64,000 bases of DNA from an uncultured archaeon (GTDB taxonomy: Archaea; Aenigmatarchaeota; Aenigmatarchaeia; CG10238-14; SCSR01): the NCBI GenBank assembly GCA_964373665.1, contig CAYJVM010000002.1, positions 8,923-72,922 on the forward strand, given 5' to 3'. A model generated the notes under the pieces. The model ran no database searches. It was not told the origin of the DNA and saw only the letters and a program-made list of their open reading frames with translations. Each line of letters opens with the position of its first letter. The first letter of the stretch is position 1. The position numbers were made by a program, and so were the translations under genes. Positions 37,055 to 52,598 of this stretch are shown here, piece after piece.

Positions 37055-37681
37055 TTAAGGTCCGCCGCCACGGACGAATAACCACCCTATTATGCCAACT
37101 AGAATTACGGCAGCAATCAACAACCAATCAACAGGCAGATTTATACCAGTCAATCCAGGGAATATTCTGGCACCTCCAGATTGAAGAAAGATGCCCAAGC
37201 TGACAAGCACAATAATTATCACTACAAACCCCATGTATTTCTGTAGGGGAAAAGTTTCTCCAGCCTTACCGAACACACCCGAATTCATGAACATTGTCAC
37301 AAGAACAAGAACGACTATTGTAGTCAGAATTGCAACCAGGCTGTTTGCGACAAACTGTGTTAAAAACTGGGAAAACGTGAATCCTATCGGCGTATAAACC
37401 ATCATAAAGCCAGCTGCAGCCAATGCTATAACAACGCTTATAGTTCTATTACCCTGATCGTTTCCGAACACACCACTCCTGACTAGTAATCCATAAAACA
37501 CTGCAAAGACCAGCAGAAACGGTAGGAAAAAATCGAAAATGCCTATCTGCTTGCCGGCCTGTATTATTTCCTGAAAGGTTCTCTGAGCCAACGCTGCAGA
37601 AGAAAGTACCAAAAGCGAGAAAACGAATACAGCAAGTCTCGAAACAATATCTTTCCTCATCTTCATTTCACTTCGCCGCAT
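37055..37681 (-). CDS. paralogous membrane protein family member (signal peptide + 4 TM)
   Basis: shares FFLPFLLVFAVFYGLLVRSGVFGND block with three neighbours. Confidence 0.5.
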   Translation of the reverse strand: MRRSEMKMRKDIVSRLAVFVFSLLVLSSAALAQRTFQEIIQAGKQIGIFDFFLPFLLVFAVFYGLLVRSGVFGNDQGNRTISVVIALAAAGFMMVYTPIGFTFSQFLTQFVANSLVAILTTIVVLVLVTMFMNSGVFGKAGETFPLQKYMGFVVIIIVLVSLGIFLQSGGARIFPGLTGINLPVDWLLIAAVILVGIIGWLFVRGGGP

Positions 37682-38207
37682 TGACGATTAACGCAACACT
37701 TCCGAATAATACTAAAATTACAATTACAGATATAAATAGGTCTGACGGGATTCCTGTGCCGACGCCCTGAGGGAACAGCACAGTCGCCAAGCCGCTGGAC
37801 ACAAGGATCACTATTCCCACAATCAAACTGAGTATTAATATTGCTCCCCAAAAGTAGCCCGACTTGATCTTGTCGCTCAGACTCTTTGCCAAGTCAGGCG
37901 GAAAGAACATCCCGGCCAGCATCAAGGCTATCAATACAACCAGTGATACAGTAAATCCCTGGACAAAGAATGCTGTTAGCTTGCCTTGTATGTCAACTCC
38001 TAGAATGACGGGAGTAGCCCAGACAAAAAGGCTTATGACGAATGCTATTATAGCATTTACAGCAATGTTCTTGTCCGGATCTCCAAAGATCTGCGCCCTT
38101 CTCAGGCCGCCGTAGATAATCGCCGCGCTTAGTATGAACGGCAGCAGGAACTTGAAGAACCCAAGCTCGTTGAGCTTCAATATCGCTATCTCGAAAAACG
38201 ACGGCAT
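37668..38207 (-). CDS. paralogous membrane protein family member
   Basis: FKFLLPFILSAAIIYGGLRRAQIFGDPD block. Confidence 0.5.
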   Translation of the reverse strand: MPSFFEIAILKLNELGFFKFLLPFILSAAIIYGGLRRAQIFGDPDKNIAVNAIIAFVISLFVWATPVILGVDIQGKLTAFFVQGFTVSLVVLIALMLAGMFFPPDLAKSLSDKIKSGYFWGAILILSLIVGIVILVSSGLATVLFPQGVGTGIPSDLFISVIVILVLFGSVALIVNAAK

Positions 38208-38746
38208 TAAACTTCCCTCCCGGTAGCCATTGCTATAAACAGAAAAATGATGAAAATTCCCAGTATCACGCCTGAAATTGCGGCCAACTCAATATTAATT
38301 CCCGCGGTTCTGACTAGTTGAACAACGGACTCCCACCCTATGCTGAAGAGCCCCATGAATACAGCAATTATAATTACAATGTAAACTAGGAGCTGAAGCG
38401 GCCCGCCTGTCGTAACCATTTGTGGAAGCCTTTCCATCAGATTCGGATAGAAGAAGCTAGCCACGAGAAGTCCGAAAAGGATGACAATCATGAATATCGA
38501 CATCTGGGCGAAAAATCTGGTCAGCGTCGGCACTATCCCAATGCCTATAATGACAGGCAGGGCAAAGATGAACAAACCCACACCGACCGATACTATGCCG
38601 TGGATGACTGCCGACTCCCCGAGAATCTGCGTCTTCCTCAGCATGGCATAAAGAATGGTGGTGAAAAGTATGAACGGCAGCAAAAAGTCGTAAAAGCCAA
38701 ACTCTAATAGCCTTTCAATAGCTATCTGAAATATGTTCGTCGCCAT
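38207..38746 (-). CDS. paralogous membrane protein family member
   Basis: FYDFLLPFILFTTILYAMLRKTQILGES block. Confidence 0.5.
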   Translation of the reverse strand: MATNIFQIAIERLLEFGFYDFLLPFILFTTILYAMLRKTQILGESAVIHGIVSVGVGLFIFALPVIIGIGIVPTLTRFFAQMSIFMIVILFGLLVASFFYPNLMERLPQMVTTGGPLQLLVYIVIIIAVFMGLFSIGWESVVQLVRTAGINIELAAISGVILGIFIIFLFIAMATGREV

Positions 38747-38787
38747 TTTACCTTAAACTAACTTGGTTTGTTGAAAATTTAAACATG

Positions 38788-39294
38788 CTAGCCGTAATGC
38801 TCCCTGTGCCTTCTCCTGAGCTTGATGTTCAGCATCTGCATATCCCTTTCTATCTCGTTCAGCTTGCTGTTCAGCTCGTACCTTTTCTTCAGATTCCTCT
38901 CCCTTACGAACTTTTCCTGCAGTTGAGACTCTAACCTCCTCAAGTCATGCAGCTTCTGCTCGTCGCCCTTAAAACTCTCCACAATTCTAGCACCCCTAAA
39001 AATCACCGCCCAGAAAATCATCAATATCAACCCGGCAAAAATTATTATGCTGGTAGCTATGCCAATCTGCGCCAGGTAGACGGCAAGGAATGCGAATGTG
39101 GCCGGCTGTAGGGCATATATCAATATGGTGAAACCGGCGGCGAGAAACAAATAAGCGAAATTGTTGTTCCCGAATATCCTGGTCATCTTCAATCCGAACA
39201 GGAAGACCGTGAAGAAAATCAAAAATGGAATTATAAGCGTTACCAGATACTGCTTCATATTGTCGGATATAAAAGTCTCAATAGGTACAGCCAT
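38788..39294 (-). CDS. paralogous membrane protein with C-terminal coiled-coil tail
   Basis: YLVTLIIPFLIFFTVFLFGLKMTRIFGNNN block plus heptad-rich C-terminus. Confidence 0.5.
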   Translation of the reverse strand: MAVPIETFISDNMKQYLVTLIIPFLIFFTVFLFGLKMTRIFGNNNFAYLFLAAGFTILIYALQPATFAFLAVYLAQIGIATSIIIFAGLILMIFWAVIFRGARIVESFKGDEQKLHDLRRLESQLQEKFVRERNLKKRYELNSKLNEIERDMQMLNIKLRRRHREHYG

Positions 39295-39325: not shown

Positions 39326-39973
39326 TTAAGCTTCTTCATGCTTCATCCTTTGGACAAGATCGGTCAATGCCCTAACTGACTCTATGAGTGCCGGCAGCGT
39401 CTGCCTGAATGCCTTTTCCAATGCGCTTATTCTGGTGTCTATGTTCCCGGCGCTGTCCTTGAAGGTGTCTATCTTGCTCAAAATCTGGGTCTGCTCCGCG
39501 CTCCTGAGACTCAAAATCTCGTTTATCCTGTCGTTGATTTCGTTTAGTCTCTTCTCTATCGCTTGGAACTTGACCGAGACTTCTATGACTTTTTCATTCA
39601 CTTCACCCATCCTTGCCTGGACGATATAATCAACATACTCCTCTGTTGGAAATTGCTGCGCTTGCTGCTTGTAATATTCCTGCGGCAGCGACGTTTCGGG
39701 TATCTGTGGCATCTGCGGCCTTTGCTCCGGCGTTATATCCTCAAGTGTAGGAAGTTCCAGCTCGCTCCTTTCCGCAGAGGTCCTTTGCCGCGGTCTTGTG
39801 GTCTCGTACCTTGTCGATTGGGTTAGCGCTGCATCCACTTCAGAAGCTTGATAGCCGTCCTTCCTTAAAATGTCGATAATCTCCGCATCGGAAAATCCCT
39901 TGGAGCTCAATTCTCTCACCCTGTCGACAGGGGGCGCCTTTTGTTTTTCCTGCTTTAGAAACGGCAAAACCAT
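39326..39973 (-). CDS. coiled-coil protein (pilus/archaellum accessory-like)
   Basis: 215 aa, Q/E-rich, long heptad region. Confidence 0.4.
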   Translation of the reverse strand: MVLPFLKQEKQKAPPVDRVRELSSKGFSDAEIIDILRKDGYQASEVDAALTQSTRYETTRPRQRTSAERSELELPTLEDITPEQRPQMPQIPETSLPQEYYKQQAQQFPTEEYVDYIVQARMGEVNEKVIEVSVKFQAIEKRLNEINDRINEILSLRSAEQTQILSKIDTFKDSAGNIDTRISALEKAFRQTLPALIESVRALTDLVQRMKHEEA

Positions 39974-40013: not shown

Positions 40014-40445
40014 CTAAGCCTTCTTTACCTTCGGAATCTTCAAGCTGACGTACCTTTCCATCTCGTCTTTCGTGACGTACTTGGCCGTTACAGGATTTAT
40101 AAGCTCCATATAAGTCTCTATTTCCTTGAACTCCCTTTTCGTCGCCGTCTTCGACAAATCCTTGTTCACGCGAAGTATTTCGTTTTCTATCGACACTAGC
40201 TTTTCCGACAGCAACACAAGTCTGTCAGTCATCTTTTCCATGAATATCTTCAATTCATTTAGATGGTTCAAAGTGCTGTCCTGAAGTGCACTGATGGAGT
40301 TTTCCATCCTATCCATTCTTTGTTCTATAGCCCTGATTCTTCTAGTGTCCTCGTTCACCCTTTTGACAAGCTCAGATGCCAAGGCTGTCATGTCATCACG
40401 CCGTTCGAATGACAGTATTCTTGATGGGTCTGGGATGGGCATTAT
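40014..40445 (-). CDS. coiled-coil protein
   Basis: start moved to internal Met (MPIPDPSR) to remove overlap with divergent ATPase gene. Confidence 0.4.
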   Translation of the reverse strand: MMPIPDPSRILSFERRDDMTALASELVKRVNEDTRRIRAIEQRMDRMENSISALQDSTLNHLNELKIFMEKMTDRLVLLSEKLVSIENEILRVNKDLSKTATKREFKEIETYMELINPVTAKYVTKDEMERYVSLKIPKVKKA

Positions 40446-40478
40446 AAAGGATTTGTCTAAGAAAACAAATAAATTAAT

Positions 40479-42716
40479 ATGGCTGTTGAGTACGAGCTTG
40501 CCGATGGAGTAATCAGGATTAACTGCATGAACTGGGCGATAGCCCCAAGCGTGGAAGACTCGGAGGCGACTATGGCTGTTGTCATAGACACGCTCCTGAA
40601 AGTTCCTGATGCGCACCGCATAGTTCTGGTCGAGGCGCGAGAAAATGAATATGACGAAGACCAGACTAGGATGCTCAGGGAAATTGCGGATGCATATAAC
40701 AGGATAGTCAATATAGACAAGATTCTCAGCATCAAGAACCTTGGTCCGCCGGAATTCGAAAAGCTTTTCCCAAAAAGACTTGCGGATTTGCAGTTCCTTG
40801 TGTTGGAAGTCATGAGGAAAGATCCGATAGGCGCGTACATCAGGATCATAAAGATGGTGAACGCCAACAAGGTGCTTGAGAACACTGCCCCATTTGCGCA
40901 GAAAGCGGCTTTTTCATATTATATCGACAATGCACTAATCCCGATAAAAAATATTATTGAATCATCAAGCCTAATCAAAAAGGCTATGCCTGTCCTTCAA
41001 AACTATCGATTCGGCAGCAGGGACATTTACCGAGAAATATTCTCCCCGACAGTAAAGCCCAATTTCATGCTCACACGACTTATGCTTACAGTGCCGAAAG
41101 GCGCGAGAATGATGGAGAAGTACAGCATCAAGGGAGGCGAGATAGAGATTTACAAACTGCTTAACAAGGTGCGCCATCTTTATCATGTTACGCCGAAGGA
41201 GTTTGTTTTGAGCGACGAAAAGTATTCCATCCTGGACTCGGCGCGAAGATACCTCGCATCTCACAGGCCTACGGAAGCAGAGACAGTCGAGCCAGACAAA
41301 TCGCGGGAGCTCTTCAAAAATCTTGGCAAGGACCTCATAAAGGACGTGGCGCAGAGCATGAACGTAAAGCTGTCTGCGGATGAGATAGAAGAGCTGTCCA
41401 GCATACTGTCACGATACACGGCCGGCTATGGAGTTCTCGAGCTTTTGCTTTCCGACGAGAAAATCCAGGACATCTTCGTAAACTCGCCTATTGGGACAGT
41501 GCCGATATTCATAATACACGGAGACTATGAGGAATGCGAGACAAACTTGATACCGACTATGGGTGACGCGGAAGCGTGGGCCACAAGATTCAGGCTGTTT
41601 TCCGGAAGACCATTGGACGAATCCAATCCTGTGCTTGACACAGAACTGATTGTGCCTGGAGGAAAAGCAAGAGTGGCTGCAATAACAAGGACATTATCGC
41701 CGGAAGGGCTTGCATTCGCATTCAGGAGGCACAGAGAAAAGCCTTGGACGACGTCTTTGTTCATCAAGCACAAAATGATCGACTCTCTTTATTCCGGTGT
41801 GATGAATTTTGTAGTCGACGGCGGAAGAGCATTGCTTGTTGCCGGAGGCCGCGGTTCCGGGAAAACATCTCTGCTGAATGCACTAATGCTTGACATCATG
41901 CCCAAGTTCAGAATCCTTACAGTAGAAGACACACTTGAAATTATTGTGACGGACATGAGGAGATTGGGCTACAACATCGAAAGAATGAAGTCGAGATCGG
42001 TAATTACCAAGGTAGAGACTGAACTGCCGGCAGACGAAGCCCTGAGAACTGCACTGAGATTAGGCGATTCAGTCCTTATATTGGGGGAAGTCAGAAGTCT
42101 TGAAAGCCTTGCCTTGTTTGAAGCCATGAGAATAGGTGCTCTGGCGAATGTTGTCGCTGGCACGATTCACGGCGAATCTGCTTATGGAGTTTACGACAGG
42201 GTTGTGCATGACTTGGGCGTCCCTCCAACTAGCTTCAAGGCGATAGATCTGATCACTATTTGCAACCAGCTCAAGTCGCCCGACGGCCTGCACAGGTTCA
42301 GGAGAGTGACCGAACTGACGGAAGTGAGAAAGCAGTGGAAGAATGATCCGATGGACGAAGGAGGATTTGTCAATTTAATGGAGTATTCTGCGAAGGAAGA
42401 CATGCTAAAGCCGACTGCGACTTTGATCGACGGCGAGTCTCAGGTGCTGAATGAGATAGCAAAGAGAGTCAGGGAATGGAGGGGCCATTGGGATGTTGTG
42501 TGGGACAACATTTTATTAAGGGCGAAAATCAAGCAGACAATGGTGGAGCTTGCCGGGCAGTCGAACAAGCCGAATGTGCTGGAGGCCGACTATTCCGTCG
42601 AATCCAACTCCATGTTCCATCTATTTTCAGAGCAGGTGAGAGATGAGGTTGGGGGAATGGACTCGAAGATGATTTATGACAGATGGCTCGGATGGTTCAA
42701 AGGAAGGATAAAATAG
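40479..42716 (+). CDS. type IV pilus/archaellum-type secretion ATPase (FlaI/VirB11/TadA superfamily) with about 300-aa N-terminal extension
   Basis: Walker A GGRGSGKTSLLNAL, Asp box and His box regions; 745 aa. Confidence 0.75.
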   Translation: MAVEYELADGVIRINCMNWAIAPSVEDSEATMAVVIDTLLKVPDAHRIVLVEARENEYDEDQTRMLREIADAYNRIVNIDKILSIKNLGPPEFEKLFPKRLADLQFLVLEVMRKDPIGAYIRIIKMVNANKVLENTAPFAQKAAFSYYIDNALIPIKNIIESSSLIKKAMPVLQNYRFGSRDIYREIFSPTVKPNFMLTRLMLTVPKGARMMEKYSIKGGEIEIYKLLNKVRHLYHVTPKEFVLSDEKYSILDSARRYLASHRPTEAETVEPDKSRELFKNLGKDLIKDVAQSMNVKLSADEIEELSSILSRYTAGYGVLELLLSDEKIQDIFVNSPIGTVPIFIIHGDYEECETNLIPTMGDAEAWATRFRLFSGRPLDESNPVLDTELIVPGGKARVAAITRTLSPEGLAFAFRRHREKPWTTSLFIKHKMIDSLYSGVMNFVVDGGRALLVAGGRGSGKTSLLNALMLDIMPKFRILTVEDTLEIIVTDMRRLGYNIERMKSRSVITKVETELPADEALRTALRLGDSVLILGEVRSLESLALFEAMRIGALANVVAGTIHGESAYGVYDRVVHDLGVPPTSFKAIDLITICNQLKSPDGLHRFRRVTELTEVRKQWKNDPMDEGGFVNLMEYSAKEDMLKPTATLIDGESQVLNEIAKRVREWRGHWDVVWDNILLRAKIKQTMVELAGQSNKPNVLEADYSVESNSMFHLFSEQVRDEVGGMDSKMIYDRWLGWFKGRIK

Positions 42717-42742: not shown

Positions 42743-43114
42743 ATGGGGAAAGGCGCGGTTGATTATATAGTTGCCATAGTTCTTGGTGTAGCCGTCATAG
42801 CCTTGCTTGGATACTGGTTTTTCACATCACAGAGGGACGGTAGTGGAAGCGCAAATCTGGCTGAATGCACTGCTGTGAAGACCCAATTTTGCGCGATTCA
42901 GACTGAGGAAAACTGGAATAAGATGCTCACCAAATGCGGCGACGCCAACAAGTTCAAGTCAGTTGAAGTGATAGAAACGACAAGTGGCATTAACTTTAAA
43001 AAAATCGACAACCAGTGCAACAGTTTTTGCAGTACTGTGATACCGGGATGGTCGCCCTTATCAAGCAACAACCATCCCGAATGCAGCAAGCCACCTCAAC
43101 CGACAAAAGCCTAG
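42743..43114 (+). CDS. small Cys-containing pilin-like secreted protein (class III signal peptide-like)
   Basis: MGKGAVDYIVAIVLGVAVIALLGYWFF; paralog of 49332 and 52275 genes. Confidence 0.55.
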   Translation: MGKGAVDYIVAIVLGVAVIALLGYWFFTSQRDGSGSANLAECTAVKTQFCAIQTEENWNKMLTKCGDANKFKSVEVIETTSGINFKKIDNQCNSFCSTVIPGWSPLSSNNHPECSKPPQPTKA

Positions 43115-43144: not shown

Positions 43145-45109
43145 GTGGCTATAGTCTCAAGGGATTATGAACAGTTTCTCCGAGAGGAACAACTCGCGAA
43201 AAGATTGACGTTTTACGAGAGGCTATGTTCTTTATTAGAGTTTCTTCCATCACCTGTGACAAAGGGACTGAGGGAAAAATATACTGAAGCAATGGAATTC
43301 TCCCACATGAAGGCGTCGCCGAAAGGTGCATTCAACCTATCAATTCTGGGCACGTTGTTAATATTCGCAGCATCTCTATCACTCTTGTATTTCATCGATT
43401 CTTTCTCCCCAGGATCTGTTATTTTATCGCTTTTCATCGCTTCACTCGCATTTTACTTTCTTGTCAGCTATCCTTTGAGGTATGCGACAATTTTCAGGAT
43501 AAGCGCATCTTCGGAAATGGTTCTCGCGACAATATACATGAGCATTTCCATGCATATCTCGCCAAACTTGGAGAACGCTGTCAAGTTCGCTTCAAAAAAC
43601 TTGAAAGGGTCCCTCGCCAAAGACTTGAGGGGTCTTTTGTGGAATGTATACACACGCAAACACGATAGAATAGAGGACGCCTTCGACAATTTCGTCAAAA
43701 AATGGGAGCGTGAAAACAAAGAGTTCGCCACATCGCTATATCTTATTAAAAATTCCACTGCAGAATCACAGGCTAGACGCGAAAAGTTTCTTGACGAAGC
43801 AGTTTCTGTAATGCTTGAAGGGACAAAGGAGAGGATGCGAGGATATGCCCGAGAGCTAAAGGAACCGGTGACAATATTGAATGCGCTCGGCATACTGCTT
43901 CCGATAATAGGCCTGGTGTTCTTCCCGGTAATAAGCATCTTCCTGCCGGAAATTGTCAAGCCAGTGCTGCTGATTTTGGGCTATGACATTTTCCTCCCCC
44001 TGATAGTTTTCTTCCTTATGTCTAGCTATCTTGAAAAGCGTCCGTACAGCTTCCATCAGCCTGACCTTAGAAAGCATCCAGAGTTCTCTGTGGAGAAATT
44101 CTACGAAAAGCCTTACATAGTTCCTGTCCTAGTGTCCATACCGCTCCTTCTGTTTTCGGGATACAAAATGATAGGCCAAGAAGAAATCTTCAGCTTCGAG
44201 CTTCTGCTGTATTCTATGATAGCCAGCGTCGGAATAGCGGCTGGAGTGATAAGCTATTCCTATCTCTCTGTGCGGAGAAAGCTGAAAATCCGAAAGGAGA
44301 TATCGGACATAGAAGGTGAATTTGCAGAGGCGCTTTTCCAGCTCGGCAGCCTGATAATGCGCGGGATTCCACTTGAGGCAGCAATGAAGAGATCCAAGGA
44401 CCAGTCAAAGAACATGAAGATAGCAGACTTTTTCGACAAGATACTTTACAATATAAAGACTTTTGGAATGACTTTCGAAGACGCAGTTTTCCACAAAGAA
44501 TACGGTGCATTGAGATACTACCCGTCCACTCTCATAGAGGCTGTGATGAATGTCATAGCGGAGACATCGCAGAAGGGCATGCAGAGCGCATCCAAGTCGA
44601 TGGTCATAATTTCAAAATATCTAAAGGACATGCGTGAGGTGGACGATGAGCTGAAGAGCATGATGGAGGATGTGACGTCGACAATGAATACTCAAGCAAT
44701 CATGCTCGCACCGTTAAGCGCGGGTGTTGTCGTAACACTCGCCGCAATAATGACTCGACTTCTCATCAAGCTTGGCGAGTCCATAAAAGACATTTATTCT
44801 GGTCTTGGATCAGCCCTCGGTCCTGCGAGCGACTTGGGGGCAGGCGTCTTCGAGTCAATATTCAACATAAGCTCTATAATCCCAGTGCATGGGTTCCAGC
44901 TCATAGTCGGCATTTATCTTGTGGAGATTGTCACTTTGATAGCAGTAGCTGCCAGTACTATAACTAACGGAGAGGAGAATCTGCTGAAAAGGTTCAATAT
45001 CGCGAAGATACTTTTGTACAGCATGGTCGTCTATATAGTCACTCTTTTCGTCACATACTACATCTTCACTTCGGTAATTTCGATAGAAAACCTCACGGCC
45101 AATAGTTAA
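43145..45109 (+). CDS. FlaJ/TadC-like polytopic membrane platform protein
   Basis: 654 aa, two cytoplasmic T2SS-F-like domains separated by TM helices. Confidence 0.6.
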   Translation: MAIVSRDYEQFLREEQLAKRLTFYERLCSLLEFLPSPVTKGLREKYTEAMEFSHMKASPKGAFNLSILGTLLIFAASLSLLYFIDSFSPGSVILSLFIASLAFYFLVSYPLRYATIFRISASSEMVLATIYMSISMHISPNLENAVKFASKNLKGSLAKDLRGLLWNVYTRKHDRIEDAFDNFVKKWERENKEFATSLYLIKNSTAESQARREKFLDEAVSVMLEGTKERMRGYARELKEPVTILNALGILLPIIGLVFFPVISIFLPEIVKPVLLILGYDIFLPLIVFFLMSSYLEKRPYSFHQPDLRKHPEFSVEKFYEKPYIVPVLVSIPLLLFSGYKMIGQEEIFSFELLLYSMIASVGIAAGVISYSYLSVRRKLKIRKEISDIEGEFAEALFQLGSLIMRGIPLEAAMKRSKDQSKNMKIADFFDKILYNIKTFGMTFEDAVFHKEYGALRYYPSTLIEAVMNVIAETSQKGMQSASKSMVIISKYLKDMREVDDELKSMMEDVTSTMNTQAIMLAPLSAGVVVTLAAIMTRLLIKLGESIKDIYSGLGSALGPASDLGAGVFESIFNISSIIPVHGFQLIVGIYLVEIVTLIAVAASTITNGEENLLKRFNIAKILLYSMVVYIVTLFVTYYIFTSVISIENLTANS

Positions 45110-45474: not shown

Positions 45475-47622
45475 ATGTCTAAAGGAGCGATGACAGTAGA
45501 GGCGATAATGAGCATCTTTTTGATGATAGCCGTTCTTGTCGTAGGCGTTTCATTTCTGTTGCGTGCATTCAACATAGACTTGTTCGGTTTTCTCGGAGAT
45601 TTGCTGGGCGGGGTGATTGGCGTGCCGGAGAAAGGATTGGTACTGTACATAAGACTGGATCCTGACAGTGGTGCCAGGCTTGGAGGTGACGGCACAGCTG
45701 AAGTTCATGCATTTTCATTGATCGAGCAAGGAATCTTGAGGCAAAACAACTTCAAATTCAAGATCGAGAACGATTTATACTTTTGGCCAGATCCAAAATA
45801 TGTTTCCGACGGACAATGCACTATTTTTCTCGTCGACGAAGGGGATGAACCTAACGACGACAGAGGAAAGCTGGCGAAAGTGAAGTCTGGGACGCAAATA
45901 GATGATGAAAAATGTCCTGTTGGTACCAATTTGGCTAGTTGCTTATCAGATTCGAATGCTCAATACTCCTGCGGTTTTATGACTCAGGCGGATGTTGGTG
46001 AGTGCAAAGGTGTTAATTGTGTAAATTGTCCAGATGTCAACTGTCCAAGTATCCGCACAGGACAACGAGTTGCTTGTCAAGGTAATTCAAATATAGTATA
46101 TTGTAAATACTCGCTAAGCGAAGTGCCAAATAAATGCATGGATAATACAAAAGTCCTAGACGAAAAATTCTGCATAGAAGAGAAAGACAAGTGTGTATGG
46201 TATAAAGATTCATGCTCGGCTAATGGATGCTCGCTTGCGTACCCAAACTCGTACAGGGTGAAGTACGGAGTGTTCTGCGCGAATGACGGTCAGTGGTATT
46301 CATGCACGAAGAAGAACGATGGAAAAACCAGGGACGACCTTACCTGCACAAAGGAAGGCGACAGCTATGTTTGGAAGGGCACGTTTAAGGCAAGGAAAGC
46401 AGATGCGGCACCGAAGGTGTATGTGGGTGCAATACCGAACGTAAGCAATAAAATCGAGCAGATAATAGGGAGGAACATAACGATAACCGCATATGCTGAC
46501 GACAGCGAAGCTGGCAACGGCTTGACTAAATTGGAGTTATCAGGAACAGATACTTGCACCTATCCAGAGGTTCTTAATGATCCTCCTTTCCCTGATTCGA
46601 AGAGCAGGAACTGCGACAACAAGCTCTTCTGCGGCCGGGACTTTAAGATTAACTGCAATGACGTGAGCAGACCTACAGTTTCTGTGATAGCTACATCGAA
46701 CGCAAACCCGCCAAACAACAAAGCCACTAAAAATGTAGGCGTGGAATTCAAGAAAGAGCTGGTTTATGCCAGTTTCCCTGGCAGTGCAGTTAAGGATTCC
46801 AATATCTATCATAACACGTCCTCCTCAATTTTCATGACTTTAGACGTAAAAGTTGCAAATGATGGCCAAACCAGATCCATAATTTACGGACCAGGAATAG
46901 AAACAAGTGACGGAAGCTTTATTGAGTTAGGCACATTTTCGGATGTCAGGCTGTCAAGCACTGATGTGAATGGCGATGTGGTCTTGAGAATGGGTGCTGC
47001 CGGCTGGCATTCATTATACGAATTCCATAAAAAGGCATCTGGAATGGATCCCAATACCAACCCAACTCTTGTTTTCTCGTACTCCTTGTCAAGAGGAGCA
47101 GATAGAGAAAATTTGCACCCAGTCGATGAAAAAGTATACAAACTAGGTTTTGATGCGTTGTGGGAATATTCACCAGATTACAAAGTTGATTGGATAGCTG
47201 ATAGCGGCGTAACGCTGTCATTCCCAGACGTTAGTTCAGATCCAAACTCTGTCAAACATGGCAGAGTCTCAGTAAAGGCACAAAAGCCAGTGGCAGACGT
47301 AAAAGGTTTAACGTTTAAAAGAGTTGACCCATCTTATACTGGACCATTAAGAATATCAGACGGTATTGTCTTGTCTTACAAAGGGGATGGTGGTCCGGGC
47401 AAAATCTTGATACATGATGTAAATGGCAAGAACAATTGCGTCGTACTACCGGACCGCGTCTCGGACTGCGGGATAGTTCTAACACCAAAACCCGATCAAT
47501 TCAAATACGTCTATATTACCAGGCAGTATTTAATTGATCAAGGATTGAATCCAGATAGAATAGACAGAATTGAATTCCAGTTTGGAACCACGCTGATTAT
47601 TGATGGCTTCTATTACAGTTAG
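45475..47622 (+). CDS. large Cys-rich pilin-like adhesin
   Basis: N-terminus MSKGAMTVEAIMSIFLMIAVLVVGVSF (class III/prepilin-like), then >30 Cys in 715 aa. Confidence 0.55.
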   Translation: MSKGAMTVEAIMSIFLMIAVLVVGVSFLLRAFNIDLFGFLGDLLGGVIGVPEKGLVLYIRLDPDSGARLGGDGTAEVHAFSLIEQGILRQNNFKFKIENDLYFWPDPKYVSDGQCTIFLVDEGDEPNDDRGKLAKVKSGTQIDDEKCPVGTNLASCLSDSNAQYSCGFMTQADVGECKGVNCVNCPDVNCPSIRTGQRVACQGNSNIVYCKYSLSEVPNKCMDNTKVLDEKFCIEEKDKCVWYKDSCSANGCSLAYPNSYRVKYGVFCANDGQWYSCTKKNDGKTRDDLTCTKEGDSYVWKGTFKARKADAAPKVYVGAIPNVSNKIEQIIGRNITITAYADDSEAGNGLTKLELSGTDTCTYPEVLNDPPFPDSKSRNCDNKLFCGRDFKINCNDVSRPTVSVIATSNANPPNNKATKNVGVEFKKELVYASFPGSAVKDSNIYHNTSSSIFMTLDVKVANDGQTRSIIYGPGIETSDGSFIELGTFSDVRLSSTDVNGDVVLRMGAAGWHSLYEFHKKASGMDPNTNPTLVFSYSLSRGADRENLHPVDEKVYKLGFDALWEYSPDYKVDWIADSGVTLSFPDVSSDPNSVKHGRVSVKAQKPVADVKGLTFKRVDPSYTGPLRISDGIVLSYKGDGGPGKILIHDVNGKNNCVVLPDRVSDCGIVLTPKPDQFKYVYITRQYLIDQGLNPDRIDRIEFQFGTTLIIDGFYYS

Positions 47623-47743
47623 TACAGTTTTCGGCAATGTCCTTTAACGAAAGCGAGCGGGAAATCCCACACTCTTTAGAGGTGGGATGAGAGCGAGCAC
47701 AAGAAACGATAGGTATATATAGATAGCGTTCATATAATGTAAT

Positions 47744-48142
47744 ATGCCAAAGGGTTATATAGCATCTGAGACATCGGTGCACTTCATGAATTATCATTTC
47801 GTGTGGTGTCCGAAGTATCGCAGGAAGATACTTGTCAGGGATGTCAAAAAGAGGTTGGAGAAATTGATACAGCAGAAGACAAAGGAACTGAATGGCGAAG
47901 TCCTATCTCTTGCGATAGGAGACGACCATGTTCATCTGTTCGTCAGGACTACTCCGACAATAGCTCCAAATTCCTTTATAGGAAAAGTAAAAGGGTTCAC
48001 GTCAAGAATACTGAGACAAGAGTTTCCGACTGTGAAATCAAGACTTCCGACGCTTTGGACTCGCTCATATTTCGTTTCAACGCATGGGCATATTTCGGAT
48101 GCAATGATAAAGAAGTACATTGACGAACAAAAGGGAATGTAG
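47744..48142 (+). CDS. tnpA: IS200/IS605 transposase TnpA (Y1 HUH)
   Basis: HVHLFV HUH motif and catalytic Tyr region; 132 aa. Confidence 0.85.
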   Translation: MPKGYIASETSVHFMNYHFVWCPKYRRKILVRDVKKRLEKLIQQKTKELNGEVLSLAIGDDHVHLFVRTTPTIAPNSFIGKVKGFTSRILRQEFPTVKSRLPTLWTRSYFVSTHGHISDAMIKKYIDEQKGM

Positions 48143-49279
48143 ATGAGAAATTATAGGTTCAGAATCTATCCATCGAAGATGCAAGAGAAGGAAATGCAGA
48201 AGCACCTATGGATAGAGAAGAATCTATGGAACATGCTTCTTGAAGTCAACGGAAAAACATACGACGAAACAAAGAAGTTTCTGACAAGGAATGAGATGCA
48301 GGTATTGGTCAAAAATTCAGGATTATTCTCTCAGACAGCACAAACTCTTTCTCATCGGTTGCAGAAAGCGTTATGGAGAATGGTCAAACTTCGAAAGCAG
48401 GGAAAGAAGTGTGGCTACCCAAGATTCAAGAGCATAGATAGAATAAAGAGTCTGAATTATCCGCAAGCGGGATTTAAGCTCGATAAAAAACTGAAGGTCA
48501 CTCCATTCGGCGAAATCAGCATAAAGAAACACCGAGACATCGAAGGCAGGATAAAAACTCTCACTTTGAAACGAGAATCTTCAGGCAAATGGTTCGCTAC
48601 TTTCTGTGCTGAAATCGAACCTCATATGCCAAAGATAAATCATGGAGAGAAAGTTGGTATCGACCTCGGACTTGCAAAATTCGCCATCCTTTCAAACAAG
48701 GAAGTCATAAAGAATCCGAGGCATCTGAAAAAATACGAGAAGAAGCTTGCATTATTGCAACAGAGATTATCAAAAAAGAAGAAAGGAAGCAAGAATAGGA
48801 AAAGAGCCAAGCATAAAGTCGCCTTACTATACGAGAAAGTTGCCAATACACGGACTGACTTCCTTCACAAGACTTCAACGAGACTCGTCAATAGTTATTC
48901 CCTTATAGCGCTTGAGAAGCTTGCGTCTCAGGAGATGTCACAACAAAACTACGGCAAGCAAATCAATGATGCTGGATGGAATATGTTTTCGAATATGGTT
49001 AGCTACAAAGCTGAAAATGCTGGTTGTCGAATCGTATTTGTGAATCCGCATAACACTACACAGGAATGTAGCAACTGCCATGAGATTGTGAAGAAAGGAC
49101 TGCAAGACAGGATACACGACTGTCCCAACTGCAATCTGGTAATGGACAGGGATTTGAACGCTGCAAAGAATATACTCATAAGAGCTACCGCAGGACTTGC
49201 GGGAAGTCAAGCTTCTGGAGATGGAGATTCATTGCCATCTTTGAAGGAAGAAGTCCACATCCTTCAGGGGTGGGAGTAG
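48143..49279 (+). CDS. tnpB: TnpB (IS605 OrfB) RNA-guided endonuclease
   Basis: N-terminal YRFRIYPS..QE; C-terminal Zn finger CSNCHE...CPNCN; RuvC-like residues. Confidence 0.85.
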   Translation: MRNYRFRIYPSKMQEKEMQKHLWIEKNLWNMLLEVNGKTYDETKKFLTRNEMQVLVKNSGLFSQTAQTLSHRLQKALWRMVKLRKQGKKCGYPRFKSIDRIKSLNYPQAGFKLDKKLKVTPFGEISIKKHRDIEGRIKTLTLKRESSGKWFATFCAEIEPHMPKINHGEKVGIDLGLAKFAILSNKEVIKNPRHLKKYEKKLALLQQRLSKKKKGSKNRKRAKHKVALLYEKVANTRTDFLHKTSTRLVNSYSLIALEKLASQEMSQQNYGKQINDAGWNMFSNMVSYKAENAGCRIVFVNPHNTTQECSNCHEIVKKGLQDRIHDCPNCNLVMDRDLNAAKNILIRATAGLAGSQASGDGDSLPSLKEEVHILQGWE

Positions 49280-49331
49280 GTCACCAAAATACTTAAATAC
49301 AGTCCAAACGAAATAGTAATCTAGTGAATCC

Positions 49332-49664
49332 ATGAAAAAAGGCATTGCAGTTCCTTACATCATAGCCATTCTTTTAGGTGTCGCTGTTATAGGCCTTATT
49401 GGTTATTGGCTGTTTCTTTCCGGGAAGGGAATAGGTACAGGAGCCAAAGAGACCGAGTGCAATTCTGAATTGAACATTTACTGCAGCGATTGGTTGAGAA
49501 CTGGATCGGAACCATCTAGATGGGACGGGACATGTAACGCTGTTCTAAGGCCAGCAGTTACGACAAAACCAGACATAAATTACTGCAAGAATAAAGGGTA
49601 TAATATACCAGTCGCAGCCAGTGGTCCAGGAGGCGGTGGGGGCGGAGGAACATCACCGGGATAA
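49332..49664 (+). CDS. small Cys-containing pilin-like protein (paralog)
   Basis: MKKGIAVPYIIAILLGVAVIGLIGYWLF; conserved Cys pair; Gly-rich C-terminus. Confidence 0.55.
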   Translation: MKKGIAVPYIIAILLGVAVIGLIGYWLFLSGKGIGTGAKETECNSELNIYCSDWLRTGSEPSRWDGTCNAVLRPAVTTKPDINYCKNKGYNIPVAASGPGGGGGGGTSPG

Positions 49665-49722
49665 GCACAATAATAAAATACAAATATTTATTTGTTAAAT
49701 TCAAAATCCATAATAGATCTTA

Positions 49723-51189
49723 ATGAGAACAAGTGTATTTTTTATTCTGTCATTGGTTTTAATTATTTCTTCCTTATATATCTTCATATACGCTACAACG
49801 GCTCAAACTAGTGCAAGTGTTATCTGGGCAGTAACTCCGGTAAATGTCAAGCCTCCAGATAAAATTACAGTTTACGTTCAAACTGTTAGTTCGGATATAA
49901 CAAATGTTAAGGTATGGATAGTAGGTTCCAAAGGCGCTTCTGTACCTCAGGAAGGCTGGAGTTTGTTGACCGAGAAAGCCTCCACCCCCATTACAGTCGA
50001 AATTTCTCCCGATAAATACACCGACTTTCCCCGCGTATATGTTGCTCTTGAACTTTATGAAGGTAACCAACTTGTAGCCACAGGCAACCCCAATTCAGTC
50101 GGCTACAATCCCAGTCTGATTAAAGAAGTTTTGGTTAACGCAGATGTATCAACAGTCGGCGTTGTTTGGAGCATGTCCCACCAAATCACGTCTTCACCTC
50201 AGTTCATCCAAGTCAATGTGGATTCGATCAGTGGCGATTTTGACGAGGTCAGAGTTTGGGCCGCAGGATCTACTGGCACAGATGCACCGCAAAGTGGCTG
50301 GACAAGATGGGCGAGTTGGCATTACCATACCTTGTCGCCTTCGATAAAAATTCCGACAAGAGAGTATATCGGCAGTTCTTACGTGTACATCGTCCTTGAT
50401 CTGGTCAAGGACGGCAAGGTGATAGTATCAGGATATCCCTATGTCGGGCATTATAACCCAGAACTGCGTAAAGAAGTGTCTGTTAGCTTGTCGAGACCTT
50501 CCATTCAGATCTCTTACAGAGATAGGGCGACTTCTGAAGAAAACATAACCGGCACAATATATGCTACAGCTGGAAACTTCGACGAAATCCGCATTTATGC
50601 AGCAGGTTCAAATGGTGATATGCCGATAGTAGGATGGACAAGATGGTATACAAAGACACCCACATCTGTGCCTTTCAACTATTCAATTCCTGCAAAAGAC
50701 TACAGGACATTTTCACGCGTATACCTCGTTTTCGATCTGGTCAAGGACGGCAAGGTGATAGCATCAGGATACAAATATTCTTCAGCATATAAAGCAGACC
50801 TCCAGGTACCAGTTGCTATTGGTACACAACCGCTCCCAGCTTCTCCATTCAATGCTACTTGGAGCGTCGCACCGACATCTGTAAGCATCCCTAACGAACT
50901 CGAGGTTAAAGTGGATTCTTCTACTGGCAATCCCGATAGAATACATGTTTGGTCAGCTGGCTCCAAAGATCAGAATTCTTGGCCGATAGTAGGATGGACA
51001 AGATGGACAAAAGACATAGCAACACCCACACCCTTCACAGTAAAAATAAAGAGTGATGATTATTCAGACTCTTCTATTGTATTCGTTGTTCTGGAACTGA
51101 CGAAAGGCGGCAACTTAGTAGCAACCGGAAATGCTAATGCCCCCAGCTATGATTCTAAGCTCCGTCGAGACATACAAATAACAAAATAA
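49723..51189 (+). CDS. secreted surface protein with four tandem repeats of about 110 aa
   Basis: signal peptide; repeats beginning VWIVGSKG / VRVWAAGSTG / IRIYAAGSNG / IHVWSAGSKD with conserved GWTRW and DLVKDGKVI blocks. Confidence 0.6.
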   Translation: MRTSVFFILSLVLIISSLYIFIYATTAQTSASVIWAVTPVNVKPPDKITVYVQTVSSDITNVKVWIVGSKGASVPQEGWSLLTEKASTPITVEISPDKYTDFPRVYVALELYEGNQLVATGNPNSVGYNPSLIKEVLVNADVSTVGVVWSMSHQITSSPQFIQVNVDSISGDFDEVRVWAAGSTGTDAPQSGWTRWASWHYHTLSPSIKIPTREYIGSSYVYIVLDLVKDGKVIVSGYPYVGHYNPELRKEVSVSLSRPSIQISYRDRATSEENITGTIYATAGNFDEIRIYAAGSNGDMPIVGWTRWYTKTPTSVPFNYSIPAKDYRTFSRVYLVFDLVKDGKVIASGYKYSSAYKADLQVPVAIGTQPLPASPFNATWSVAPTSVSIPNELEVKVDSSTGNPDRIHVWSAGSKDQNSWPIVGWTRWTKDIATPTPFTVKIKSDDYSDSSIVFVVLELTKGGNLVATGNANAPSYDSKLRRDIQITK

Positions 51190-51250
51190 TAGCATAAAGA
51201 CATTTTGTTATGGAAAAATAGAAAATGATACAAAACAATTAATAATGTGT

Positions 51251-51282
51251 CCAAAGCAGTCGCCGTCCAGGCAGTCTTCATG
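51251..51282 (+). repeat. direct repeat copy 1 (32 bp exact; imperfect extension 51240-51250), pilin 5'-end remnant
   Basis: ccaaagcagtcgccgtccaggcagtcttcatg identical to 52279-52310. Confidence 0.8.
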
Positions 51283-51322
51283 TTGATATATTTATATATC
51301 AGATGATATAATTTTATATCAT

Positions 51323-51850
51323 ATGTTACAAGATTACAACGTATATAGGATACTAAGACTCTTCTTTGATTCCCCGACAAAACATTTTCAACTTCGGGAA
51401 ATAAGCAGAATAACTAAAATTGGTTTACCAAGTGTGCGGAACCACGTCAAGAGGCTCGAAAGGCTTGGATTTGTGAAAAAAAAGAAAACATCCGTATACA
51501 CATCTTTTGTTTCAAATAGGGACGATGAAAAATTCCTTACTTATAAGAGAAGTGATACTCTAATTAGGCTCCATGAAACAGGTCTTGTTTCTTATTTGGC
51601 GGAGAAATCACTCCCTGATACAATAGTACTCTTTGGTTCATGCTCAAGAGGAGAAGATATCGAAACAAGCGACATAGATTTGTTCATTCAAGGACCAGAA
51701 GAAAAAATAGACTTGGGTCGGTTTGAAAGCAAATTGAAAAGAAAAATAAATTTGCTATTTGAAAACGACATAAAAGATATCTCAAACGAGCTAATGAACA
51801 ACATAATAAACGGAATCGTAATTTACGGTTATCTGAAGGTTTTGAAATGA
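51323..51850 (+). CDS. nucleotidyltransferase (MNT) with N-terminal wHTH domain
   Basis: IVLFGSCSRGEDIETSDIDLF GSx10DxD motif. Confidence 0.8.
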   Translation: MLQDYNVYRILRLFFDSPTKHFQLREISRITKIGLPSVRNHVKRLERLGFVKKKKTSVYTSFVSNRDDEKFLTYKRSDTLIRLHETGLVSYLAEKSLPDTIVLFGSCSRGEDIETSDIDLFIQGPEEKIDLGRFESKLKRKINLLFENDIKDISNELMNNIINGIVIYGYLKVLK

Positions 51851-52272
51851 AAGAGTGGGAAGAGGTTGAAGCTGAAGTCTGGAAAACAACTCCAGATAAA
51901 GAAATGACTCGCTCTATACTAAAGATGGCAGACGTAAGATTACGTGCTATAGAATCCTTAAATAAAAAAGAATTCATGTCAATAATAGTAGAAAACTATT
52001 ACGAGGTCATTAAAGAATTGATAACTGCCTTAATGTCTGCAGATGGCCTCAAAACGCTTAGGCACGAAGTCTTAATAGTATATTTGAAAAAGTTTCACAA
52101 AAGTTTCGACAGAGGCGAATTATTCATTATCGATCAATTAAGGCAGACAAGAAATAAAATCGTGTATAAAGGATTTTTCGTGCAGGAAGCTTATTTGGAA
52201 AGAAATGAAAATAAGTTAAGGATGATAATAGAAAAACCACGAAAAATAATAACGCAAAAGCTCGGTTATTAA
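51847..52272 (+). CDS. HEPN domain protein
   Basis: 141 aa, overlaps MNT by 4 nt, helical; typical HEPN-MNT pair. Confidence 0.65.
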   Translation: MKEWEEVEAEVWKTTPDKEMTRSILKMADVRLRAIESLNKKEFMSIIVENYYEVIKELITALMSADGLKTLRHEVLIVYLKKFHKSFDRGELFIIDQLRQTRNKIVYKGFFVQEAYLERNENKLRMIIEKPRKIITQKLGY

Positions 52273-52274
52273 TT

Positions 52275-52574: not shown

Positions 52575-52598
52575 TAATTTGAAAAATGAATAAGATTT

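Follow-up and report, generated by a model that had tools for sequence, protein, structure and literature searches.

Archaeal type IV filament machines include accessory, lineage-specific proteins whose genes neighbor those for the ATPase and the platform; examples are ArlX and ArlC/D/E of the archaellum. ArlX combines a membrane anchor, consisting of one transmembrane (TM) helix, with a coiled coil, and it forms a cytoplasmic ring around the archaellum motor. In bacterial T4P (type IV pili) and T2SS machines, PilM/N/O and GspL/M are likewise encoded with the motor genes and link the hexameric ATPase to the polytopic platform protein; these small membrane proteins are bitopic and display cytoplasmic or coiled-coil parts as well as periplasmic ferredoxin-like domains. 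Precedents for uncharacterized small polytopic and cytoplasmic coiled-coil proteins specifically linked to archaeal T4P ATPases come from Makarova et al. (2016, PMC4858521), who describe orphan proteins with 4–5 TM helices (arCOG05557 and arCOG13890) in the Thermoproteales T4P subclade 4D and a coiled-coil protein (arCOG07564) in subclade 4F.

We focus here on a family of small polytopic membrane proteins encoded next to a type IV filament motor in DPANN archaea. The window, meaning the whole analyzed stretch of 64,000 nucleotides (64 kb), derives from an Aenigmatarchaeota (DPANN) genome and contains four consecutive minus-strand ORFs at 37055–39294, exactly where the sequence-only reading had placed them. 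Their products, termed M1 to M4, would on balance be integral membrane proteins that act as accessory subunits of a type IV filament (pilus) machine of the DPANN type, a reading to which we assign a rough probability of 0.55. The M genes form the 3′ part of an apparent operon-like array, cc1-cc2-M4-M3-M2-M1, in which cc1 and cc2 encode coiled-coil proteins. This array diverges from a type IV pilus locus, which encodes a T2SSE ATPase (745 aa), a platform protein of the FlaJ/TadC type, and some nine pilin-like proteins. The M genes had been described as upstream of the two coiled-coil genes; they are instead located 3′ (downstream) of both and are transcribed in the same direction. The cc1 and ATPase starts lie 36 bp apart on opposite strands.

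The cc1–M operon is compact in the window, with gaps of 31–41 nt read from the sequence. The stop codon of M3 overlaps the start codon of M2 (TAATG), and M2 and M1 either overlap or, if M1 starts at ATG 37666, are 1 nt apart. The 36-bp divergent intergenic region (40443..40478) contains TTTATAA, as read from the sequence, and likely serves as a shared bidirectional archaeal promoter for the cc–M and ATPase operons. A sigma-70 promoter scan, which is not applicable to archaea, returned counts at background level. At the 3′ end of M1, a hairpin followed by a T-rich tail (37060..37075, minus strand), recognized as a consensus match only, may be the operon terminator.

The ATPase gene (40479..42716, plus strand) encodes a type IV filament ATPase of the T2SSE/VirB11 superfamily, which matches Pfam T2SSE at 4.8e-17 (62 bits versus a cutoff of 24.9) and the NCBIfam models for TadA and FlaI near 1e-34. 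Matches to PDB sequences (2OAP, CpaF, and FlaI) are confined to residues 284–690, and the N-terminal extension of ~280 aa has no solved relative. The ATPase is followed by a small pilin-like protein (42743..43114, plus strand) with a class III-type N-terminus (MGKGA/VDYIVAIVLGVAVIALLGYWFF); in several loci of close Aenigmatarchaeota relatives, its homologues also separate the ATPase from FlaJ. The next gene (43145..45109, plus strand) encodes a FlaJ/TadC/PilC-type platform protein with nine TM helices predicted from hydropathy and a Pfam T2SSF match at 9.8e-6 (26.0 bits versus a cutoff of 25.2). A pilin-like gene block (45475..57509, plus strand) contributes seven further ORFs with class III-like N-termini, three of which carry LysM, SLT_3, or Peptidase_M23 domains. 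This block is interrupted by an IS200/IS605 element (47744–49279) and by a nucleotidyltransferase gene (51323–51850), directly after which lies an ORF without a Pfam match (51847–52272). Nine ORFs located 3′ of the ATPase have N-termini that are short and basic, often contain a K-G/A motif, and lead into a hydrophobic helix; these class III-like N-termini were called by pattern and not by a FlaFind-type predictor. Given that T2SSE, T2SSF, and class III-like N-termini are all present, the predicted gene products identify a genuine archaeal type IV filament locus. ArlF, ArlG, and ArlH are absent from the locus, which is thus one for a pilus and not for an archaellum.

Among the four M genes, the canonical members are M2 (37668..38207, minus strand, 179 aa) and M3 (38207..38746, minus strand, 179 aa; family HMM E 2e-38), joined by M1 (37055..37681, minus strand, 208 aa; family HMM E 1e-39). 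Pairwise blastp values (8e-24 for M2–M3, 6e-14 for M1–M2, and 2e-6 for M1–M3) place the paralogy of these three far beyond chance. M4 (38788..39294, minus strand, 168 aa) is a truncated paralogue in which TM1–TM3 are followed by a charged tail of ~68 aa, and it is only marginally similar to the other M proteins by pairwise blastp (0.002–0.056). Its family membership is secured by profile–profile comparison: an alignment of M4 orthologues matched a family profile built without M4 sequences over TM1–TM3 with an hhalign probability of 98.2% (E 4.9e-14). The four-way paralogy proposed by the sequence-only reading is therefore upheld, as is the N-proximal block that it had noted as common to all four. 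In an alignment of 92 sequences, this block constitutes the most conserved part of the family, with at least 92% conservation at each of eight positions (G16, L22, P23, F24, L26, L35, K37, and G42).

M1 and M4 depart from the canonical architecture at opposite ends. M1 possesses a cleavable-type signal peptide ahead of its five TM helices. Its start is more likely ATG 37666, which is one base past the M2 stop codon, than 37681, and the mature N-terminus after ALA/Q lines up with the N-termini of M2 and M3. The signal peptide, first noticed for its cleavable appearance, is supported by conservation: many Aenigmatarchaeota arrays contain one paralogue with an N-terminal extension, commonly of about 25 aa including a hydrophobic segment, and the family members P0155 and P0159 (the latter being the M1 orthologue in locus L005) possess an AxA/Q site equivalent to that of M1. 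The M4 tail had been called a charged coiled coil. The charge is evident (45% of residues), but the heptad periodicity is only modest, and "charged helical tail" is the safer description. Tails of M4 orthologues span 54–113 aa and contain 23–42 charged residues; charged C-tails are also present in the M proteins of other lineages.

Hydropathy and AlphaFold models agree on five TM helices in each of M1–M3, preceded in M2 by an N-terminal amphipathic helix, and on three in M4. The three or four helices initially proposed do not hold for M1–M3. A typical family member is ~180 aa long with five TM helices. Two AlphaFold models, built from 36 and 92 sequences, are all-helical with pLDDT values of 75.5 and 76.5. 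Residues 1–60 exceed a pLDDT of 90, and the C-terminal half of the fold is only moderately confident (pLDDT 52–78; pTM 0.49). The charge distribution predicts an N-out/C-in topology, with mean K+R counts of 2.66 (loop 1), 1.57 (loop 3), and 3.11 (C-tail) versus 1.29, 0.40, and 0.63 in the alternate segments. The N-terminus and the short amphipathic helix would accordingly be outside, and the C-terminus and the most conserved loop (L-x-K-x-x-I-F-G, after TM1) are predicted to be cytoplasmic. The predicted cleavage site of the M1 signal peptide directly precedes the conserved N-terminal helix. Together with the charge distribution, this position predicts that the M4 tail is cytoplasmic, on the same side as cc1, cc2, and the ATPase.

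The predicted topology bears on whether the M proteins could be filament subunits of a non-canonical kind or could stand in for PibD/FlaK as a divergent prepilin peptidase with five TM helices, both of which we consider very improbable. The N-terminal hydrophobic helix is the best conserved, as in type IV pilins, but M1–M4 lack a class III signal motif with its K/R-G/A cleavage site, are predicted from charge to be N-out, opposite to prepilins, and contain five TM helices (three in M4), a number incompatible with extraction into a filament. A pilin or archaellin identity was rejected on these grounds. A peptidase would fit the findings of Makarova et al. (2016, PMC4858521), who reported five TM helices for the common archaeal form of prepilin peptidase and could not identify PibD/FlaK in two nanoarchaeal genomes. 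It would also fit the lack of a Peptidase_A24 (prepilin peptidase) match among those ORFs of the 64-kb window that were scanned against Pfam (part of its ORFs), although 64 kb is only a portion of the genome and a canonical peptidase may lie elsewhere. The M family itself has no Peptidase_A24 match, no invariant Asp, and no GxGD-type motif; its best acidic column is 71% Asp, with Lys at that position in M2, and assignment of M1–M4 as A24 prepilin peptidases was likewise rejected.

The M family has no known relative in the databases searched. An exhaustive profile search retrieved 1,564 cluster representatives, and M2 has 76 close homologues; all named ones in either set are annotated as hypothetical. 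When M1–M4 and 34 diverse members were compared with Pfam and NCBIfam, none scored above cutoff, and weak composition-like matches were returned to DUF2070, DUF6773, MprF, and others. The family profile gave a best E of 0.17 against PDB sequences, which is not significant. Foldseek against the PDB gave no match for the first model (36 sequences) and a best E of 1.5 with a TM-score of 0.23 for the second (92 sequences). The sequence-only reading had not recognized the family either, and neither a match to an unrelated transporter family nor a failure of the N-proximal block to align was encountered. DUF2070, a predicted archaeal membrane protein with no function known to us, was the only family matched by several M members (6/34, best E 0.0025), and M1 of the window aligned to positions 17–172 of 561, the N-terminal part of the profile, with 11.9 bits (E 0.068). 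These scores are far below the 30-bit cutoff and compatible with a hydrophobic composition bias, although a remote homology to DUF2070 may exist. Derivation of the M family from the TM region of FlaJ or from a T2SSF fragment was rejected, with no T2SSF match and an hhalign probability of 3.6% against the DPANN FlaJ profile (E 0.012; reversed control 0.083). As a separate observation, the motif GFYDFLLPFLLVF..LEKTK in the M family bears a tempting resemblance to GYDIFLPLIVFFLMSSYLEKRP in FlaJ, which is not significant. Full-text literature searches returned no description of the M family. It is unmentioned in the excerpts examined of PMC6393860, PMC4858521, PMC5498576, PMC9258230, PMC8204110, and bioRxiv 10.64898/2026.04.22.720090, and excerpts of the archaeal type IV pilus census of 2016 and the 2026 MacSyFinder-based census mention none of the M, cc1, and cc2 families.

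The two coiled-coil genes likewise encode uncharacterized proteins. The soluble product of cc2 (39326..39973, minus strand) carries a UBA-like motif of three helices (KGxSExEIIDxLxxxGYSxxEIDxAL) at its N-terminus, together with a linker rich in P and Q, a coiled coil, and, at the C-terminus, the conserved motif LEKAFKxxLPxL; its homologues are named "hypothetical" or bear inconsistent automatic names. The first gene of the divergent operon, cc1 (40014..40442, minus strand), encodes a small coiled-coil protein that is 142 aa long when read from ATG 40442; an alternative Met lies at 40391. Orthologues of cc1 were retrieved from 43 loci by phmmer and from 47 after jackhmmer iteration. A FlaC_arch or DUF7310 identity was considered for cc1/cc2; the matches (5–6/20 members, best E 4.3e-6 to 2.2e-5) are below the Pfam cutoff and, appearing amid dozens of generic coiled-coil families, are inseparable from generic coiled-coil noise. 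Regarding a likeness to the archaellum, FlaC_arch weakly matched 6/20 cc2 homologues with a best E of 1.8e-5, and unrelated coiled-coil families scored equally well.

Conservation of the neighborhood was assessed across 57 related loci with the labels Aenigmat-, Micr-, Nano-, Woese-, and Nanohaloarchaeota. The ATPase and the M array are no more than 6 kb apart (median 1.5 kb) in 46 loci, and the remaining 11 are truncated by the end of a contig on the flank expected to carry the ATPase; all 46 adequately flanked loci carry the same T2SSE ATPase (E below 1e-200). FlaJ/TadC adjoins the ATPase in most, not all, of the related loci. The synteny in relatives that had been proposed as a check, with linkage to the pilus ATPase and FlaJ, is therefore strongly positive, holding for the ATPase in every informative locus and across several DPANN phyla. 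Between the M array and the ATPase lie cc1 and cc2. Among the loci that show the ATPase, a cc1 orthologue is directly beside it and divergent in 46/46, and cc2 is beside cc1 and the ATPase in 45/46. Tandem M copies number two in 26 loci, three in 10, four in 16, and five in 5 (n = 57), and the occurrence of at least two paralogues in every lineage suggests a hetero-oligomer. One narrow peptide pattern scan of genomes, together with best-match names, suggested that the family is restricted to DPANN.

Gene order varies among these lineages. MAGs labeled Aenigmatarchaeota or Micrarchaeota display the ATPase divergent from cc1-cc2-M array, and in loci labeled Nano-, Woese-, or Nanohaloarchaeota, the M array and cc2 are convergent. 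Half of the loci have the M array in a transcription unit apart from cc1/cc2, so that co-expression of M with cc1/cc2 is not guaranteed. This lack of co-orientation in other DPANN lineages is what would be expected if the M genes encoded unrelated housekeeping membrane proteins whose position is kept by inherited DPANN synteny and not by function, and Aenigmatarchaeota arrays do always adjoin housekeeping genes as well, e.g., those for diphthine synthase and Trm5. Such neighbors (dph5, for example) are, however, not conserved outside the Aenigmatarchaeota/Micrarchaeota-labeled group, whereas cc1, cc2, and the ATPase stay at the frequencies given above. The adjacency also holds whichever way the array is oriented with respect to cc1/cc2 and the ATPase, and M4, directly downstream of both coiled-coil genes, gained a charged tail that is predicted to be cytoplasmic. 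The linkage of the M array to the ATPase, cc1, and cc2 survives rearrangement, and passive retention of housekeeping genes appears improbable.

The same linkage evidence is shared by a different functional proposal, in which the M proteins make up a conduit through the membrane or a module for substrate handling, using the ATPase/FlaJ motor, and not a static scaffold. Possible cargo would include DNA, lipids, or proteins exchanged with the host; alternatively, the module could act in the feeding or extraction of pilins in the membrane. Several polytopic paralogues per locus could form a pore, and the pilus genes with murein-binding and murein-cleaving domains suggest a host-directed apparatus, in keeping with the reduced genomes and host dependence of DPANN archaea described in PMC6393860. 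Yet conservation falls on G, P, L, F, K, and N, not on charged or polar TM residues, and there is no invariant acidic column. Neither sequence nor fold resembles any transporter or channel family, and the best-conserved part, comprising the cytoplasmic loop and TM1, fits a protein–protein interface better than a pore lining. We consider a conduit unlikely for these reasons.

An accessory-subunit role, suggested by the sequence-only reading for a pilus or secretion system, is supported by the conserved genomic context and the predicted topology. Linkage of the M family beside a type IV pilus motor across DPANN indicates that it is probably a missing motor part. From this we infer physical contacts among the components, an oligomeric state, and a scaffold role. 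The M paralogues would come together in the membrane, surrounding or flanking the FlaJ/TadC platform, with their cytoplasmic faces binding the soluble coiled-coil proteins cc1 and cc2. The binding faces may comprise the conserved loop 1 and the C-tails rich in K and E; in Aenigmatarchaeota, the long tail of M4 with its charged residues may contribute as well. In turn, cc1 and cc2 would be docked to the ATPase through its lineage-specific N-terminal extension; extensions of this kind have been argued, in a 2026 preprint (10.64898/2026.04.22.720090), to be interfaces for subsystem-specific accessory proteins. The resulting module could position and hold the ATPase hexamer against the platform, a role for which ArlX/ArlCDE (archaellum) or PilMNO/GspLM (bacterial machines) would be the analogues.

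The comparison with these systems has clear bounds. In subclade 4D, according to Makarova et al. (2016), the small TM protein replaces TadC, whereas the M locus also has a full FlaJ/TadC, and the arCOGs were compared by description only. With its TM segments and charged helical tail, M4 together with cc1 and cc2 resembles the general layout of ArlX/ArlCDE; the difference is that M proteins possess five TM helices (three in M4) and occur as 2–5 paralogues, versus one TM helix in ArlX. PilM/N/O and GspL/M share no sequence or fold likeness with the M family, and the analogy is functional only.

DPANN archaea represent a large share of archaeal diversity. To our knowledge, every cultivated member requires physical host contact, and the contact machinery is largely unknown. 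Three uncharacterized families (M, cc1, and cc2) accompany one type IV filament ATPase in MAGs labeled as at least five phyla, and they constitute concrete candidates for missing membrane and cytoplasmic motor parts. HMMs for the three families would improve the detection and classification of DPANN systems. The peptidoglycan-binding and -cleaving pilin-like proteins at the locus hint that this archaeon targets bacteria. A more speculative and doubtful extension is that a surface machine for episymbiosis, present throughout DPANN and confined to it, has as its core the M family and FlaJ together with cc1, cc2, and the ATPase with its long N-terminus. The M paralogues would be a new membrane base or conduit for a pilus that attaches to, breaches, and perhaps imports through the host envelope, by means of domains that bind and degrade the host wall (LysM, SLT, and M23 in this genome). 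If true, such a machine would give DPANN a shared molecular signature.

Six minus-strand ORFs succeed one another between 37055 and 40442, with two coiled-coil protein genes, cc1 (40014–40442, 142 aa) and cc2 (39326–39973, 215 aa), transcribed ahead of the four small membrane-protein genes M4 (38788–39294, 168 aa), M3 (38207–38746, 179 aa), M2 (37668–38207, 179 aa), and M1 (37055–37681, 208 aa). Spacers measure 40 nt (cc1–cc2), 31 nt (cc2–M4), and 41 nt (M4–M3); the M2 start overlaps the M3 stop (TAATG), and M1 more probably begins at ATG 37666, 1 base past the M2 stop, than with a 14-nt overlap of M2. A hairpin with a T-rich tail lies at the M1 3′ end, and we read cc1–cc2–M4–M3–M2–M1 as a putative single operon. 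The 36 bp (40443–40478) separating the cc1 start from the divergent plus-strand ATPase start hold a single TTTATAA element and may act as a bidirectional promoter giving a leaderless ATPase transcript; alternatively, a short leader would fit if cc1 began at Met 40391. Directly downstream of M1, a 202-aa minus-strand ORF (36388–36996), with a weak DUF6782 metallopeptidase-like match (E 0.26) and otherwise without a family match, keeps this position in four close relatives (loci L003, L004, L006, and L008) and is probably a separate transcription unit.

The paralogy proposed in the sequence-only reading is clear by blastp for M2–M3 (8e-24), M1–M2 (6e-14), and M1–M3 (2e-6), and pairwise matches of M4 to the others are weak (0.002–0.056). 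When a profile of M4 and 18 M4-like sequences from related loci was compared with one of 34 family sequences from several phyla that included no M4-type member, hhalign aligned TM1–TM3 with 98.2% probability (E 4.9e-14); M4 is therefore a truncated paralogue, with a ∼68-residue, 45% charged tail in place of TM4–TM5. The N-proximal block originally seen in the four proteins proved to be the signature of the whole M family: across 92 aligned sequences G16 and P23 are invariant, and L22, F24, L26, L35, K37, and G42 are each kept in at least 92%. The initial count of three or four TM helices does not hold for M2, in which hydropathy and two AlphaFold models agree on an amphipathic helix (residues 4–15) followed by five TM helices. 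Mean pLDDT of the models is 75.5 and 76.5, with residues 1–60 above 90 in the second and the C-terminal half only moderately confident.

That the family was not recognized at first sight is borne out by database searches. No Pfam or NCBIfam model reached its cutoff for M1–M4 or for 34 diverse members; the sole recurrent match, DUF2070 (6 of 34 members, best E 0.0025, far below cutoff), is compatible with hydrophobic bias. The family profile matched no PDB sequence below E 0.17, and Foldseek with both M2 models yielded no structural relative (best E 1.5, TM-score 0.23). Searched exhaustively with HMMER, 1.84 billion cluster representatives yielded 1,564 proteins at E ≤ 1e-3 (313 at E ≤ 1e-10). 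All retrieved source names read "hypothetical protein", the MAG labels being Aenigmarchaeota, Woesearchaeota, or Nanoarchaeota, and close M2 homologues came exclusively from Candidatus Aenigmatarchaeota MAGs, which places the window in a DPANN archaeal genome. A scan of genomes for one narrow peptide pattern, together with the names of top-scoring matches, suggests that the family may be DPANN-restricted.

Gene neighborhoods were compared in 57 related loci (2 metagenome contigs and 55 GTDB species representatives), labeled Aenigmatarchaeota, Micrarchaeota, Nanoarchaeota, Woesearchaeota, Nanohaloarchaeota, or Nanobdellati, with one contig labeled Campylobacterales, by running the family HMM and the window's proteins against six-frame ORFs. 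A tandem M array is present in all 57, comprising two genes in 26 loci, three in 10, four in 16, and five in 5. The suspected link to pilus motor genes is seen here as well: an orthologous ATPase (E <1e-200) lies within 6 kb of the array in 46 of 57 loci, at a median distance of 1.5 kb, and in all 11 others the contig ends on the expected ATPase side. Orthologues of cc1 and cc2 lie between array and ATPase, cc1 and the ATPase gene are always divergent, and FlaJ/TadC follows the ATPase in most loci. MAGs labeled Aenigmatarchaeota and the one labeled Micrarchaeota share the window's arrangement, with the ATPase gene diverging from cc1–cc2–M array; in other lineages the array occupies the opposite strand and converges on cc2. 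Diphthine synthase and other such neighbors are kept solely within the former group. The strongest argument for M proteins working with this motor is that array and motor stay adjacent across phylum-level divergence and in both array orientations; we consider it very improbable that the M genes are mere neighbors of a pilus locus. The contig labeled "Campylobacterales bacterium" (L037, JAIVYO010000014.1) is very probably a misbinned DPANN contig, because its gene order (five or four M genes, cc2, cc1, ATPase, FlaJ) is that of DPANN loci L039 and L041. One Aenigmatarchaeota subgroup carries ∼2.5–5 kb of unknown genes between cc2 and the M array (L002, 5705–8924; L014; L024; L028–L030); in L002 and L028–L030 the insert includes a minus-strand M4-like gene with the family TM core and a long charged tail, and three of these four genes have an N-terminal extension.

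On the plus strand lies a type IV filament locus. Its 745-aa ATPase (40479–42716; Pfam T2SSE 4.8e-17, NCBIfam TadA and FlaI near 1e-34) matches archaeal GspE2 (2OAP), CpaF, and FlaI in the PDB over residues 284–690, and its first ∼280 residues have no PDB match. Downstream lie a 123-aa pilin-like ORF, a nine-TM FlaJ/TadC protein (43145–45109) above the T2SSF cutoff, and seven further ORFs with class III-like N-termini, reaching 57509. The orthologous ATPase of L002 (890–4546) carries an intein (Intein_splicing and LAGLIDADG), and ATPase ORFs of ∼3.8 kb, ∼500 aa over the usual length, in L053, L054, L056, and L057 (three labeled Woesearchaeota, one unclassified) suggest intein insertions, independent or inherited; both add to the impression of an ATPase that is highly conserved and important. 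The pilin genes on the plus strand are interrupted at two places. An IS200/IS605 element (47744–49279) encodes a Y1 transposase (Pfam Y1_Tnp 2.3e-37) and TnpB/OrfB (OrfB_IS605 1.3e-29, Cas12f1-like TNB 3e-23). At 51323–52272, an HTH and nucleotidyltransferase ORF (51323–51850; Polbeta/NTP_transf_2) precedes a 141-aa ORF with no Pfam match; the two could be an MNT–HEPN-like pair, and a DPANN-conserved cluster with MNT fused to HEPN was reported in a 2019 survey (PMC6393860).

Residues 279–300 of FlaJ (43979–44044; GYDIFLPLIVFFLMSSYLEKRP) resemble the M consensus at TM1 (GFYDFLLPFLLVF..LEKTK). The likeness is not significant (hhalign probability 3.6%, E 0.012; reversed control 0.083) and deserves a second look, since a TadC origin has been proposed for small TM proteins in another T4P subclade.

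In the 92-sequence alignment, loop 1 averages 2.66 K+R residues, loop 3 averages 1.57, and the C-tail 3.11, versus 1.29 for the N-terminal segment, 0.40 for loop 2, and 0.63 for loop 4; by the positive-inside rule this predicts an outside N-terminus and an inside C-terminus. The Sec-type signal peptide of M1 (…SSAALA/QRTF) stops exactly at the aligned N-terminal start of M2 and M3, in agreement with this topology, and many Aenigmatarchaeota arrays have a paralogue with an N-terminal extension, commonly ∼25 residues with a hydrophobic core. Because M4 has three TM helices and its N-terminus is predicted to lie outside, its charged tail should be cytoplasmic and so share a compartment with cc1, cc2, and the ATPase. 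That M proteins are pilin-like subunits or peptidases was rejected as highly improbable, given the missing class III motif, reversed topology, five TM helices, and lack of an invariant Asp. Peptidase_S74 intramolecular-chaperone domains are typical of trimeric phage tail fibers. Such a domain (8.3e-17) terminates P0159, a 317-aa M1 orthologue from one Aenigmatarchaeota MAG (L005, 10537–11490), where it would be cytoplasmic by predicted topology; it may hint at M-protein trimerization or else be a fusion or assembly oddity.

cc2 opens with a conserved three-helix motif resembling UBA-type domains (KGxSExEIIDxLxxxGYSxxEIDxAL); behind it come a linker rich in P and Q, a coiled-coil segment, and, at the C-terminus, the likewise conserved motif LEKAFKxxLPxL. 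In the short coiled-coil protein cc1, the motifs RRIRxLE and NPxTxxFxT are conserved. Neither exceeds a Pfam threshold; among sub-threshold coiled-coil matches, FlaC_arch (an archaellum accessory protein) and DUF7310 recur alongside many unrelated families. Database homologues of cc2 have no annotation or inconsistent automatic names.

The small polytopic proteins of the conserved multi-paralogue M family, the soluble cc1 and cc2, and a pilus ATPase whose N-terminal extension is unique are kept together across DPANN, the conserved loop and tails of the M proteins being predicted to face the cytoplasm. The M proteins probably function as part of this pilus-type machine, and a role as a conduit or in substrate handling is unlikely. 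In the scaffold model, M paralogues would assemble into a membrane hetero-oligomer at the FlaJ platform, bridged by cc1 and cc2 to the ATPase N-domain through the M4 tail, loop 1, and K/E-rich C-tails, and the module would position or brace the motor, working like ArlX/ArlCDE of the archaellum or PilMNO/GspLM of bacteria, to which it is not homologous. These specifics are tentative, at somewhat under even odds; for the explanation as a whole our estimate is about 0.55. Lineage-specific accessory membrane and coiled-coil proteins were described in a 2016 census of archaeal type IV pili (PMC4858521), including 4–5 TM arCOG05557/13890 (subclade 4D) and coiled-coil arCOG07564 (subclade 4F); for DPANN, that census covered nanoarchaeal genomes only, and its available text contains no mention of a family like M. 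A 2026 MacSyFinder-based census (bioRxiv 10.64898/2026.04.22.720090) reuses those arCOG sets and makes the case that the variable N-domains of the ATPases are interfaces for accessory proteins specific to each subsystem; its available portion holds no description of the M, cc1, or cc2 families. According to a DPANN protein-family survey, no set of DPANN-specific families was found (PMC8204110). So far as the literature searched shows, neither the M family nor its association with cc1, cc2, and the ATPase has been described before.

A 1,044-aa protein encoded on the minus strand (57520–60654), convergent with the pilin block where that block ends, combines two CarboxypepD_reg domains (5.5e-23) with approximately five TM helices and, at its C-terminus, a weak match to the lysozyme-like SLT_3 (8e-5); it is possibly another murein-directed surface protein. 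Within the pilin block (52599–57509, plus strand), peptidoglycan-directed domains occur in three pilin-like ORFs whose N-termini are class III-like: LysM (52599–53213; 4.8e-9), the lysozyme-like SLT_3 (53803–55860; 7.6e-9), and Peptidase_M23 (55857–57509; 7.6e-18). A few related loci (L001, L009, L021, and L034) also have M23 and LysM homologues downstream of FlaJ. Murein-binding and murein-cleaving domains predicted in an archaeal pilus locus suggest a bacterial target or host.
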